DNA of 64,000 bases from Candidatus Micrarchaeota archaeon. Lineage in GTDB: Archaea; Micrarchaeota; Micrarchaeia; Norongarragalinales; Norongarragalinaceae. Shown in pieces: positions 16,111-48,694 of this stretch. The translations under genes and the position numbers were made by a program. Where the stretch lies: assembly GCA_964580705.1 (NCBI GenBank), contig CAZOKY010000001.1, positions 1,224 through 65,223 on the forward strand. Reading direction: 5' to 3'. A model generated the notes under the pieces. The model saw only the letters and a list, made by a program, of their open reading frames with translations. It ran no database searches and was not told where the DNA came from. Every line of letters starts with the position of its first letter. Within the stretch, counting starts at the first letter, position 1.

Positions 16111-17304
16111 TTACGGTTGAATCCACTCGATCTCGTAATACTCGTACTTGCTTCCAGGAAGCTCAATGCGCTTCACGCGATAATACGTGATGCTCGTCTC
16201 GCGGTCGCAAATCGCGAGCACGAGATCGAGCCCCAACTGCTTCGCCTGTTCGAGCCCGCGCGCCAGCTCCGCGCCGCCCAACTCTTCTTCCTCGCTGAGC
16301 GCCAGCATTACGAACTTCGGTTTCCCAGTCCGCGGGTTCTCAGGCACGCTGCCCGCGCTCTCGCGGTGGTAAAGCAGGAAGTCGAGTTCGCTCGCTTCGA
16401 CGCGCTTCGCGCCGGGAATCGCGAGAATAAACGTCTTGCGCACGCCGTGCGCCACGCGAATCGCCCGCGCCCACTCGCTGATGAGCATTCTTGCTTCGCG
16501 CGGGAAAACGTGGATGACGTGCTTCGAGTGCATCCACTCGCCTTCGCCGAGCCCCGGGCTCGCGCCCGGGAAGTACAAGCGAAAGTGAGTGCCGAACTTG
16601 AAACCCGTCTTGACGACGAACCCACGCAAGCGCCAGTCTTCGTAAACCGAGTAAAGCGCGGGAAAATCGCTGCGGCGCGCAGTCGCGTCCTTAACGAGTT
16701 TTTTCTCTTTAACGTTGAGCACGAAACAAGCGTGCTTCATGAGGAACAACGTCTCGTAAGCGTCGAGTTTGAGAAAGCGACCGTGCTTCTTCGCCTTGTA
16801 CGTCCCCCACTGGCCGAACCAATTCTTTTCATACAACGCCTGCCCCTCGACGTCGTCATCGATGATCGACATCAAATCGTCGCTGAAGAACAAGCCTTTA
16901 GCCTTCACTTCGGGAAAATCGCTCGGTTTGCACGGGTACTTCTGTAACGGGCTGCGTCCGTAATTCGCGTTCGCATCCGCTTCATCGATGGGGCGCGCGA
17001 TGAGCCCGCGGTCACGCCAATCCTTGAAGCAAAAATAACGGGCGAGGAATTTCGGGTTGTTTTGAAACTTCGCCGCGACGGCATTAAACGAAAGCTCCTT
17101 TTTTTTCGCGTGGCACTTCGCGTTCCGCACGTCGATTAAATAAAGCGCTTCCTCGGGCGTCAACTCGATTTGAGTTTTTTTCCCGTCAAATTCGGTGCCG
17201 AAAAACGAGCGGTCGAGAGCTTGAACGGTGATTAAGTCGGTTACGACGACGTGTTCATCGCCTTTCTTGCCGACGACGCTTAATTCAGTAGTCACGAACT
17301 TCAT
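16111..17304 (-). CDS. endA: tRNA-splicing endonuclease EndA, long single-chain multi-unit form
   Basis: Catalytic-domain signature (YEDWRLRGFVVKTGFKFGTHFRLY ... HSKHVIHV) and an N-terminal domain (EALYLID ... LARYFCFKDWRDRG). At 397 aa it is roughly twice the alpha4 size, as in three-unit epsilon2-type enzymes. Confidence 0.8.
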   Translation of the reverse strand: MKFVTTELSVVGKKGDEHVVVTDLITVQALDRSFFGTEFDGKKTQIELTPEEALYLIDVRNAKCHAKKKELSFNAVAAKFQNNPKFLARYFCFKDWRDRGLIARPIDEADANANYGRSPLQKYPCKPSDFPEVKAKGLFFSDDLMSIIDDDVEGQALYEKNWFGQWGTYKAKKHGRFLKLDAYETLFLMKHACFVLNVKEKKLVKDATARRSDFPALYSVYEDWRLRGFVVKTGFKFGTHFRLYFPGASPGLGEGEWMHSKHVIHVFPREARMLISEWARAIRVAHGVRKTFILAIPGAKRVEASELDFLLYHRESAGSVPENPRTGKPKFVMLALSEEEELGGAELARGLEQAKQLGLDLVLAICDRETSITYYRVKRIELPGSKYEYYEIEWIQP

Positions 17305-25979: not shown

Positions 25980-26089
25980 TGGGCCCAAAGGGAATCGAAC
26001 CCTTGATCTTTTGCTGAACTAAGAACGAAAAACTCGTTCGAAGCCCTTTCGCACGTCAAGCGAACGTCTTACCACTCGACTATGGGCCC
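25980..26089 (-). tRNA. tRNA-Val (GAC) with a ~38-nt intron in the variable-loop region, a non-canonical position
   Basis: Hand-folded. Acceptor GGGCCCA/UGGGCCC, D-arm GUCG-AGUGGUAA, anticodon arm UUCGC-UUGACGU-GCGAA, T-arm AAGGG-UUCGAUU-CCCUU. 43 nt lie between position 43 and the T-stem instead of ~5. Confidence 0.7.
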
Positions 26090-26147: not shown

Positions 26148-26262
26148 TGGACCTGACGGGATTCGAACCCGTAACCTCATGCATGCCATGCATGCGATCT
26201 GTAACGCGCGGCGGACGATTGAAAAAATAATCGCTCGAGGCGTGCCGTTGATCTACAGGCCC
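26148..26262 (-). tRNA. tRNA-Ala (GGC) with a ~42-nt intron inside the D-loop, a non-canonical position
   Basis: Hand-folded. Acceptor GGGCCUG/CAGGUCC with a G3-U70 pair (Ala identity), anticodon arm CAUGC-AUGGCAU-GCAUG, T-arm ACGGG-UUCGAAU-CCCGU. The D-stem halves GAUC..GAUC are separated by 50 nt. Confidence 0.65.
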
Positions 26263-26289
26263 ACATGGCGCCGCACCGATTAAGGCGCG

Positions 26290-26352
26290 GCTACTTATTT
26301 TGCCCGCTAGGGCTTAAAAAACCTCTTTCTTTTCTCGCCTAAAGAAAGTTTT
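26290..26352 (-). terminator. hairpin followed by a T-tract downstream of the Sm gene (possible archaeal intrinsic terminator)
   Basis: Minus-strand transcript after the stop: cuuucuuu-aggcgaga-aaagaaag then agg-uuuuuu. Confidence 0.3.
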
Positions 26353-30285: not shown

Positions 30286-32343
30286 TTGCCTGGAGAACTA
30301 GTCAGCGCATTCCAAGACTTTTTCAGCGAAAGCAAGCGCAAACAATCGTTGCTCGACGCGGCAGCCGCGTTCCCGAACGAGCGCTCACTCGCCATCGAAT
30401 TCGCGGAACTCGAACGCTTCGACCCCCGCGTGGCCGACGCCTTGCTCGAGCACCCCGACGACGTCGTGAAAGACGCGGAAACAGCAGTCTCGGATTTCGT
30501 TCTGCCTACGCCGAGCGGCAAAAAATTCGCTCCGCACGTACGCTTCCACTCGCTGCCGGACTCGAGCGAAGTCGAACCACGCGAACTCGGGGCAGCGAAC
30601 CTCAACCGCTTGTTCAAAATCGAAGGAGTCGTCTCGTACATCATGGAAATCAAGCCCATGATCAAAACCGCGTTGTGGGAATGCCTGCACTGCGGCGCGA
30701 CCACGAAAACGCTTACTCAAAAAAACTCCGTTTCGGAGCCAGGAAGCTGCAGGTGCGGACACGGAGGAAAAGAAAACTTCAAATTGCTGGAGCAGTCAAG
30801 CGATTTCATCAACATCCAGAAAGCCGGAATACAGGAAGCAGTCGAAAAAATCAGGGGCAGCACGCCGGCGTCGCGCATCGAGTTATGGATGGAAGACGAC
30901 CTCGTAAACAAAATCGCTCCGGGCGACAAAGTGTGGATTACCGGCGTCATGCGCTTGAAGCAACAAAAACCCGGCAAAGGGCAGTCCAGCGTTTACGAAA
31001 AGTTCGTCGACGTCACACACATCCAAAAAGTCGAGCGCGAGTTCGAGGAAATCAAGTACTCGAAAGAAGAAGAAAAAAAGATTCAAGAACTCGCGGCGGA
31101 CCCGCACATTTACGAAAAAATCCAGAAAAGCATCGCGCCCAGCATGTGGGGTTACGAAGAAATGAAGCAAGCCGTCGCGCTGCAACTCTTCGGCGGAAAC
31201 TCGCACAAAGAAATGCCTGACGGCAAAAAAGTCAGGAGCGACATTCACGTTCTTTTAATCGGCGACCCGGGCACCGGAAAATCAATGCTCCTCGAAAGCG
31301 TTCACCGCATCGCCCCGAAAAACGTTTACGTAAGCGGCGGCGGGGCAAGCGGCGTAGGAATGACTGCGAGCGCCGAACGCAACACCGACGGAGAATGGTT
31401 GTTGAAGGCGGGTGCAATGGTTCTCGCCAACGGTGGAATAGCGATAATCGACGAATTCGACAAGATGGATGAAAAAGACCGCGGCTTAATGCACGAGGCG
31501 ATGGAACAGCAGTTCGTAAGCATCGCGAAAGCAGGAATGATAACCCAGTTCAAGAGCGCGTCAAGCGTGCTCGCGGCCGCGAACCCTAAAATGGGCCGCT
31601 TTGATTCAATGAAACCGCCGGGAGAACAATTCGCGATGGGACCCGCTTTAATGTCGCGTTTTGACCTCATATTCGCCATCAGGGATTTTCCCGACGAAAC
31701 GCGCGACCGCGGGCTCGTGGAACACGTTCTAATGAGCCACAAGCTCGCAAGCGAAAACAAGGCGCCCGACAAAGGTTCTCCGATTAATCCCGAAATCGAT
31801 GCGGAACTACTGCAGAAATACATCGCGTACGCGAGGCAAAACGTTTTCCCGATTTTGACGGACGCGGCAATAAAAAAAATCGAGGAGTATTACATTCAGC
31901 TCCGTAAGCTGGGCGAAAAGCAAGGCAACGTTCCCGTCACGCCTCGCCAACTCGAGGGACTCGTGCGCTTGAGCGAAGCGAGCGCGAAAATACGCTTGAG
32001 CGACAAAGTCGAGGCAAGCGACGCCGAACGCGCAGTCAACATCGTAAACTTCGTGTTGGAAGAAATATTCGTCGACAAGGAAACGGGGCGCATCGATAGC
32101 GACGTCATCAACATCGGCCAGTCGAAAAGCAGAATCGACAAAATGCGTTCACTCCTCGGAATAATCAGCGAGCTCGAGAAGAAGACGGACCTCGTGGCAA
32201 TCGAAGACGTTTTCCGCGACGCGGCGCAGTACGGAATGGATGAAGTTTACGTGCGCCAACTAATTGAAACCCTCGAGCGTCAAGGCGACTTGTACCGCCC
32301 CAAAGCAGGGCACGTGAAGAGCGCGCGCAAGCGCGACTGGTAA
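30286..32343 (+). CDS. mcm: MCM replicative helicase
   Basis: Walker A (GDPGTGKS), Walker B (IDEFDKM), arginine finger region and a zinc-finger N-domain (CLHCG ... CRCG). 685 aa; TTG start. Confidence 0.9.
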   Translation: MPGELVSAFQDFFSESKRKQSLLDAAAAFPNERSLAIEFAELERFDPRVADALLEHPDDVVKDAETAVSDFVLPTPSGKKFAPHVRFHSLPDSSEVEPRELGAANLNRLFKIEGVVSYIMEIKPMIKTALWECLHCGATTKTLTQKNSVSEPGSCRCGHGGKENFKLLEQSSDFINIQKAGIQEAVEKIRGSTPASRIELWMEDDLVNKIAPGDKVWITGVMRLKQQKPGKGQSSVYEKFVDVTHIQKVEREFEEIKYSKEEEKKIQELAADPHIYEKIQKSIAPSMWGYEEMKQAVALQLFGGNSHKEMPDGKKVRSDIHVLLIGDPGTGKSMLLESVHRIAPKNVYVSGGGASGVGMTASAERNTDGEWLLKAGAMVLANGGIAIIDEFDKMDEKDRGLMHEAMEQQFVSIAKAGMITQFKSASSVLAAANPKMGRFDSMKPPGEQFAMGPALMSRFDLIFAIRDFPDETRDRGLVEHVLMSHKLASENKAPDKGSPINPEIDAELLQKYIAYARQNVFPILTDAAIKKIEEYYIQLRKLGEKQGNVPVTPRQLEGLVRLSEASAKIRLSDKVEASDAERAVNIVNFVLEEIFVDKETGRIDSDVINIGQSKSRIDKMRSLLGIISELEKKTDLVAIEDVFRDAAQYGMDEVYVRQLIETLERQGDLYRPKAGHVKSARKRDW

Positions 32344-45477: not shown

Positions 45478-45503
45478 GGAATCAACTAAGCGGAAAAAAA
45501 GAG

Positions 45504-45574
45504 TGCGGCCGCCGGGAATCGAACCCGGGTCTCAAGCTTGGAAAGCTCGAATCATACCATTGGACCACGGCCGC
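45504..45574 (-). tRNA. tRNA-Gly (UCC)
   Basis: Hand-folded: GCGGCCG acceptor, anticodon loop UUUCCAA, T-arm CCGGG-UUCGAUU-CCCGG. Confidence 0.8.
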
Positions 45575-45626
45575 GCGAAAACGAGAAACCGAATTAAGTT
45601 TATCGATTGCGGGAAATAAAAACGAG

Positions 45627-45700
45627 TGGGGGAACCGAGATTCGAACTCGGGTCACGACCACCCCAAGGTCGTAGCATTGCCAGGCTAGCCCATTCCCCC
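45627..45700 (-). tRNA. tRNA-Pro (GGG)
   Basis: Hand-folded: GGGGGAA acceptor, anticodon arm CGACC-UUGGGGU-GGUCG, T-arm CCGAG-UUCGAAU-CUCGG. Confidence 0.8.
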
Positions 45701-48609: not shown

Positions 48610-48694
48610 TGCAGGGGGAGGGATTCGAACCCCCGAACCCCTAAGGGACAGGCACCTCAAGCCTGCACGTTTGACCAGGCTTCGCTACCCCTGC
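48610..48694 (-). tRNA. tRNA-Leu (GAG), class II with a long variable arm
   Basis: Hand-folded: GCAGGGG acceptor, 3-bp D-stem, anticodon arm CAGGC-UUGAGGU-GCCUG, variable arm UCCCUUAGGGGUUC, T-arm GGGGG-UUCGAAU-CCCUC. Confidence 0.8.

Follow-up and report, generated by a model that had tools for sequence, protein, structure and literature searches.

A Micrarchaeota tRNA-Ala(GGC) gene with a probable bulge-helix-bulge intron in its D-loop

Background

Within the 64,000-nucleotide stretch of Micrarchaeota DNA analysed here (the window), one interval reads as a tRNA-Ala(GGC) whose two D-stem strands (GAUC/GAUC) lie exactly 50 nt apart. This raises the question of whether the gene gives rise to a tRNA from which an intron is removed at an unusual place, whether it has been inactivated by an insertion, or whether it has been misread and encodes a different tRNA. 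An initial annotation had reported the same spacing and had postulated a D-loop intron of about 42 nt at a non-canonical position, next to a tRNA-Val gene. [quoted passage not shown]

In a BHB motif, each strand is composed, from 5' to 3', of an outer helix, a 4-nt central helix, a 3-nt bulge, and a second outer helix, and in archaea cleavage occurs after the second nucleotide of the bulge. Such folds usually differ from the computed thermodynamic minimum; often they are not that minimum because 3-nt bulges are penalised in folding. Catalogues of archaeal non-canonical BHB tRNA introns are reportedly found in Marck and Grosjean (2003) and in Sugahara et al. (2008, 2009), and the epsilon2 EndA of ARMAN-2 was studied by Hirata et al. 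(2012, PMC3488258). The 3-4-3 form of the motif, hBHBh', has been described (PMC3239211). BHB tRNA introns at non-canonical positions have been catalogued in Crenarchaeota/Thermoproteales, Nanoarchaeota, and others (review, PMC4090602), D-arm introns have been mentioned as a general feature (PMC12397907), and tRNAscan-SE 2.0 contains dedicated BHB models for non-canonical introns (PMC8450103). ARMAN-2 (Candidatus Micrarchaeum acidiphilum) has disruptions in 56% of its tRNA genes, and these have been connected with the epsilon2 EndA of that organism (Fujishima et al. 2011, PMC3239211).

The tRNA-Ala(GGC) gene

The gene and its parts are as follows, the exon boundaries being set by the BHB cleavage rule.

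26148..26262, minus strand: pre-tRNA-Ala(GGC) gene, 115 nt from the mature 5' end to A73; its spliced form is called by ARAGORN
26244..26262, minus strand: predicted 5' exon, RNA nt 1-19, corresponding to tRNA positions 1-20 with position 17 absent
26201..26243, minus strand: predicted intron, 43 nt, RNA nt 20-62, at tRNA position 20/21, ACGCCUCGAGCGAUUAUUUUUUCAAUCGUCCGCCGCGCGUUAC, with an internal hairpin
26148..26200, minus strand: predicted 3' exon, RNA nt 63-115

Read on the minus strand from 26262 to 26148, the sequence is GGGCCUG UA GAUC AACGGCACGCCUCGAGCGAUUAUUUUUUCAAUCGUCCGCCGCGCGUUACA GAUC G CAUGC AUGGCAU GCAUG AGGUU ACGGG UUCGAAU CCCGU CAGGUCC A. The features by which the initial annotation had recognised an alanine tRNA are all present: a 7-bp acceptor stem with G3:U70, the anticodon arm with GGC at window positions 26187..26185, and a canonical T-arm. 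The discriminator is A73, and CCA is absent from the gene sequence. The 5' exon is made up of the acceptor 5' strand, U8 A9, the D-stem 5' strand GAUC, and the D-loop segment AACGGC, and the 3' exon of A21, the D-stem 3' strand GAUC, G26, the anticodon arm, the variable loop AGGUU, the T-arm, the acceptor 3' strand, and A73.

As it stands in the DNA, the locus is called neither by ARAGORN in standard mode nor by Rfam at the gathering threshold. In E-value mode, Rfam recovers only the acceptor and T-arm, as a spurious 'tmRNA' match of 21.8 bits. When RNA nt 20-62 are removed in silico, ARAGORN calls a 72-nt tRNA-Ala(GGC), and the coordinates and strand of the initial annotation stand. The spliced sequence has a complete cloverleaf, with a 7-bp acceptor stem, a 4-bp D stem, and 5-bp anticodon and T stems. 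Its D-loop, AACGGCA, is a canonical 7-nt loop (A14 A15 C16 G18 G19 C20 A21), and the sequence also shows the usual tertiary partners (U8:A14, A15:U48, and G26:A44, with G18 G19 facing the UUCGAAU T-loop). Such a tRNA would be expected to be charged with alanine and used in translation.

The splicing motif

A strict 3-4-3 motif is found at the exon-intron junctions, composed of the following elements.

26196..26253, minus strand: hBHBh' splicing motif, strict 3-4-3, at both exon-intron junctions
26253..26250 with 26199..26196, minus strand: h, the D stem, GAUC:GAUC, RNA nt 10-13 with 64-67
26249..26246 with 26206..26203, minus strand: H, the central helix, AACG:CGUU, RNA nt 14-17 with 57-60
26245..26243, minus strand: 5' bulge GCA, RNA nt 18-20
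26202..26200, minus strand: 3' bulge ACA, RNA nt 61-63
26242..26240 with 26209..26207, minus strand: h', CGC:GCG, RNA nt 21-23 with 54-56

An exhaustive search of the precursor for strict 3-4-3 BHBs whose outer helices have 3 bp or more returned this motif and no other. Together with the cleavage rule, the strict motif therefore defines the intron as RNA nt 20-62, that is, 43 nt where about 42 had been proposed. The insertion site also bears out the claim of a non-canonical position, as 20/21 is explicitly listed among the known archaeal non-canonical intron sites (PMC4090602). Excision at both bulges leaves the canonical mature tRNA-Ala expected of an archaeal BHB intron, and it is at these bonds that the precursor would be cleaved and religated. 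When the intron was shuffled 20,000 times, a strict BHB arose by chance in the same register in 0.16% of cases, and in any register that restores a D-loop of 7-11 nt in 1.2%. The intron begins with ACGCC and ends with GUUAC; no C/D-box motif or C/D-box-like guide was seen in it on inspection by eye.

Because plain MFE folding does not yield the BHB, the motif was assessed by constrained folding and by comparison among relatives. A fold constrained to contain both the BHB and the cloverleaf has an energy of -41.2 kcal/mol, versus -44.2 kcal/mol for the unconstrained MFE. In the latter fold, GGC pairs with GUU, and AACG is not paired with CGUU.

Relatives of the gene

Relatives were sought by two pattern scans, one of metagenome contigs and one of GTDB species genomes, in which the insert was left free. 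The patterns specified sequence only for the D stem, the 5' D-loop, and the beginning of the anticodon arm, and consequently the invariance of the D stem and of that part of the D-loop carries no weight. Of the 15 metagenome matches, seven were chance occurrences in permease-like coding sequence from bacteria and were left out. Including the window, 12 distinct tRNA-Ala precursors were obtained (10 GGC and 2 UGC). The named sources of the relatives are one Ca. Norongarragalinales MAG, three Ca. Micrarchaeota MAGs, and one MAG labelled Aenigmatarchaeota; a further sequence, L017 (metagenome Ga0268276), is identical to the window. ARMAN-2 was unmatched in the GTDB scan, a result of little weight, as the scan demanded the D-arm sequence of the window's own clade.

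An insert of 34-50 nt is present at 20/21 in 12/12 precursors, in a set that is biased toward insert-bearing tRNA-Ala genes because the patterns sought such forms. The interiors of the inserts are mostly unrelated in sequence. A second intron is found in seven of the genes, at the canonical site in six and in the T-loop in one; the remaining five, the window among them, have none. When spliced in silico, every one of the 12 gives a 72-nt tRNA-Ala according to ARAGORN. Across the 11 distinct spliced sequences, all 231 of 231 cells of the cloverleaf (21 pairs) are standard pairs (100%, versus 28-46% in slid controls), compensatory changes occur at 6 cloverleaf pairs, and G3:U70 is invariant (11/11).

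A second alignment, of the junctions of the 12 precursors, comprised the D stem, H, the bulge, and three h' pairs on each side. Here 93.9% of the cells are paired, versus 12-43% in slid controls, and there are 4 compensatory pairs, including an H pair that changes from C16:G to U16:A in L028. The H' and h' segments lay outside the search patterns, and thus the evidence from the junction helices is independent of the way in which the genes were found. The strict motif is kept in 8/12 precursors and is relaxed in the other four (L010, L020, L022, and L027): H pairs at 3/4 positions in L010 and L027 and at 2/4 in L022, and h' is reduced to 1 bp in L020 and L027. Relaxation of this degree falls inside the known tolerance of the epsilon2 enzyme. 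In the relatives, the BHB motif is thus conserved as structure and not as sequence.

One relative, L002, lies on a syntenic contig, with an MCM that is 81% identical and the same Alba/tRNA/LSM/MinD/NYN/TatD/MCM order. Its tRNA-Ala(GGC) has an insert of 50 nt at this D-loop site, unrelated to that of the window, together with a second, canonical 37/38 intron.

Two further kinds of relative may be recorded here in their own right. In L009/L011 (Ga0194125_10111647 and Ga0194111_10163607), tRNA-Ala(UGC) has two non-canonical introns, one at 20/21 in the D-loop and the other a 38-nt T-loop insert (at about 58/59 or 59/60); the latter site has been reported for tRNA-Cys and tRNA-Pro of ARMAN-2 (PMC3239211). 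In L027 (JACQNW010000022.1, 6771..6969), from the MAG labelled Candidatus Aenigmatarchaeota, the tRNA-Ala(GGC) has exons identical to those of L020 and carries, besides the 20/21 intron, a canonical intron that, at about 83 nt, is unusually long.

The splicing endonuclease and a proposed pathway

A motif scan of the six-frame translation of the window revealed an open reading frame for a splicing endonuclease.

16111..17304, minus strand: predicted epsilon2-type EndA, 397 aa; Pfam tRNA_int_endo, 1.2e-27, and tRNA_int_endo_N, 1.2e-11

Residues 17-397 of this protein align, over the full length, to residues 12-387 of the ARMAN-2 EndA (PDB 4FZ2) with an E-value of 3.6e-122. The catalytic triad of ARMAN-2, Y236/H251/K282, is matched at the aligned positions by Y244/H259/K290, and the ASL specificity lysine of ARMAN-2, K161, by K170, which lies in a GTYK loop. 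Judging from this alignment, the protein is of the epsilon2 type, with three predicted units, alphaN-alpha-betaC, in one polypeptide. In vitro, the ARMAN-2 enzyme has been found to cleave BHBs at non-canonical positions whether the motif is strict or relaxed (PMC3239211, PMC3488258), and the EndA of the window would likewise be the enzyme that excises the tRNA-Ala intron. Its gene lies about 9 kb from tRNA-Ala on the same contig; since it is encoded in the window, the cutting machinery for the mechanism outlined below is present.

In this mechanism, the tRNA-Ala(GGC) gene would be transcribed into a precursor of about 115 nt plus leader, in which A14-A15-C16-G18 of the D-loop would pair with CGUU near the 3' end of the intron to form the central 4-bp helix of the BHB. 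This helix would be stacked between the D stem and the intron helix CGC:GCG. The epsilon2-type EndA would then cut both 3-nt bulges behind their second nucleotide, which places the cuts after C20 and before A21, and a putative RtcB-type RNA ligase would join the halves. The product, a tRNA of 72 nt, would have AACGGCA as its D-loop, of the canonical 7-nt length. Of this pathway, the analysis has demonstrated the tRNA gene, the motif along with its conservation and covariation, and the presence of a gene for the enzyme.

Alternative explanations

Even if an intron is removed from this tRNA-Ala, its junctions could be placed differently, by one or a few nucleotides (for example, at 21/22 or 19/20), or processing could proceed through a relaxed motif. 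An A stands at both junctions in the window (as the first base of the intron and the first base of the 3' exon), and excision at 20/21 and at 21/22 consequently yields the identical product. In addition, the MFE fold has GGC:GUU in place of AACG:CGUU, and relaxed motifs are tolerated by the epsilon2 enzyme (PMC3239211). However, the first base of the intron is U in L002, L021, L024, and L025 and G in L010 and L027, and in these six orthologs only 20/21 keeps both A21 and the 7-nt D-loop, which settles the ambiguity of the window. Furthermore, the H helix AACG:CGUU is conserved and covaries, and the registers 18/60, 17/59, and 22/64 were rejected, as each destroys either G18 G19 or the D stem. 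A displaced junction or a relaxed mode of processing is thus quite improbable, and the choice of 20/21 over 21/22 follows from the BHB rule and the orthologs taken together, the window's own letters being insufficient for it. The predicted spliced junction reads ...GAUCAACGGC|AGAUCGCAUGC..., i.e. ...AACGGC|AGAUC..., and the intronless form contains GTAGATCAACGGCAGATCGC.

It could instead be argued that the 43-nt insertion in the D-loop is never removed and that the locus is a pseudogene. The silence of the standard finders, ARAGORN and Rfam, would fit with this, and as 64 kb of the genome are in view, a second, uninterrupted copy of tRNA-Ala(GGC) could lie elsewhere. Yet a decaying gene would be expected to have no BHB, no covariation, no intact cloverleaf, and no enzyme to go with it. 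Here, the strict BHB that flanks the insert is unlikely to be due to chance; 12 distinct genes share the site, with inserts that differ and junction helices that are conserved and covary; the changes in the exons are only compensatory or neutral, with cloverleaf pairing at 100%; and a matching endonuclease gene is present. An inactivated gene is therefore a highly improbable explanation. The remaining proposal, that the locus encodes another tRNA with a canonical intron, derives from ARAGORN run with -i on the precursor, which returns a 'tRNA-Val(UAC)' with a 24-nt intron at 37/38 and a long variable arm. In this fold, the D stem has only 2 bp and the true anticodon arm is misused as the long variable arm, a feature that is absent from tRNA-Val. 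Moreover, the same option applied to the 12 orthologous precursors gives Glu, Val, Asn, Ala, Leu, or nothing, whereas reading the insert as a D-loop intron yields tRNA-Ala in 12/12. No alternative fold is conserved, and the comparative data already refute a canonical intron, leaving a different tRNA identity hardly tenable. Both results that the initial annotation had named as adverse thus turned out otherwise: a strict hBHBh' is present at the junctions, and the sole canonical-intron fold, the 'tRNA-Val(UAC)', is not shared by the relatives. Taken together, these findings indicate that 26148..26262 is very probably a functional tRNA-Ala(GGC) gene with a BHB-type intron in its D-loop, belonging to a Micrarchaeota (DPANN) archaeon.

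Neighbouring features

The tRNA-Val neighbour that the initial annotation had mentioned is real, and several other features of the surrounding DNA were noted.

25980..26089, minus strand: tRNA-Val(GAC), Rfam tRNA 60.6 bits, 58 nt downstream of tRNA-Ala on the same strand
26270..26291, minus strand: 8-bp hairpin in the 5' leader of tRNA-Ala, GCCGCGCC-UUAAUC-GGUGCGGC, -17 kcal/mol
30286..32343, plus strand: MCM helicase, 685 aa, closest to Candidatus Micrarchaeota proteins
45503..45700 and 48610..48694, minus strand: uninterrupted tRNA genes Gly-UCC, Pro-GGG, and Leu-GAG, on which ARAGORN and Rfam agree

The tRNA-Val(GAC) gene is itself interrupted, by an insert of 38-39 nt in the variable region. 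The corresponding gene of L002 (2505..2434) is intronless and defines the mature tRNA-Val sequence. The repetition of AAAG at both junctions leaves the cut register ambiguous over five positions (41/42 to 45/46), and a search for a strict 3-4-3 BHB found none in a usable cut register of this gene; if spliced, the motif must therefore be relaxed. At roughly this site, the orthologs in L024 and L025 carry inserts of 43 and 56 nt that are unrelated in sequence. Thus, with tRNA-Val inserts absent or unrelated in relatives, both the presence and the sequence of introns turn over quickly here.

The leader hairpin sits between a conserved promoter-like block (TTTTTAAG ... GGCAAAATAAGTAGCCGCGC, extending upstream to 26321) and the 5' end of tRNA-Ala. 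L025 and L026 retain it with compensatory changes; L002 and L024 lack it and have the conserved block directly next to the tRNA. The best named match of the MCM helicase is a protein of a Candidatus Norongarragalinales archaeon (78% identity). The window protein has no intein; many of its Micrarchaeota homologs are about 1,030-1,190 aa long and contain LAGLIDADG/intein Pfam domains. A T-arm motif scan, which is blind to genes with a T-loop intron, detected no further tRNA-like T-arms in the window.

Discussion

The main value of this locus lies in annotation. ARAGORN and the Rfam tRNA model miss tRNA-Ala(GGC), and consequently, unless BHB-aware tools are used, the tRNA sets of Micrarchaeota MAGs, and the inferences about completeness and decoding that are drawn from them, will be under-estimated. 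The tRNA inventories of DPANN MAGs therefore need BHB-aware annotation. The gene also adds a clean, comparatively supported D-loop (20/21) intron beyond Crenarchaeota.

The occupation of the same site in GGC and UGC isoacceptors and in several MAG lineages hints that the intron may be old, stable, and lineage-wide rather than the result of a recent transposition. The one MAG labelled Aenigmatarchaeota raises the prospect that the 20/21 tRNA-Ala intron may reach another DPANN phylum. A bolder version of this idea, in which the 20/21 intron would be an old, lineage-wide, and possibly obligatory trait of Micrarchaeota alanine tRNAs and not a sporadic insertion, is speculative and, on present evidence, rather doubtful. 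If it were true, the intron would be maintained by selection, possible reasons being the ordering of D-loop modification or folding or the shielding of the gene from integrating elements, and standard pipelines would systematically under-count tRNA-Ala in DPANN genomes.

In relation to known systems, the tRNA-Ala 20/21 intron is a fresh instance of a known phenomenon, of the ordinary archaeal type that is cut by an enzyme. It resembles other archaeal non-canonical BHB introns in being short (43 nt), in its 3-4-3 hBHBh' motif, in its 20/21 D-loop site, and in the co-occurrence, among the window's relatives, of a second intron (canonical or T-loop). Unlike the Crenarchaeota cases, the host here is a Micrarchaeota (DPANN) MAG, and GGC and UGC tRNA-Ala share the site across several MAG lineages. 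What is mildly new is this sharing of one site by the two alanine isoacceptors in several lineages of Micrarchaeota.

ARMAN-2 belongs to the same phylum-level lineage and has the same EndA architecture, with the triad and the ASL lysine conserved, and in both cases interruptions at non-canonical sites affect many tRNA genes. However, the examples shown for ARMAN-2 are introns at 37/38, 53/54, and 59/60 in tRNA-Ile, -Cys, and -Pro (PMC3239211, PMC3488258, PMC12397907). The presence of a broad-specificity epsilon2 EndA about 9 kb away from the gene fits with a published proposal of co-evolution between the diversity of introns and the architecture of the endonuclease. Ectopic D-arm introns with a BHB-like motif are also found in tRNAs of Cyanidioschyzon merolae and of cryptophyte and chlorarachniophyte nucleomorphs (PMC3728597, PMC9602550, PMC4090602). 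Those cases, however, are eukaryotic, depend on the heterotetrameric Sen enzyme, and are unrelated by descent, and the likeness to the tRNA-Ala intron of the window is one of functional analogy only.
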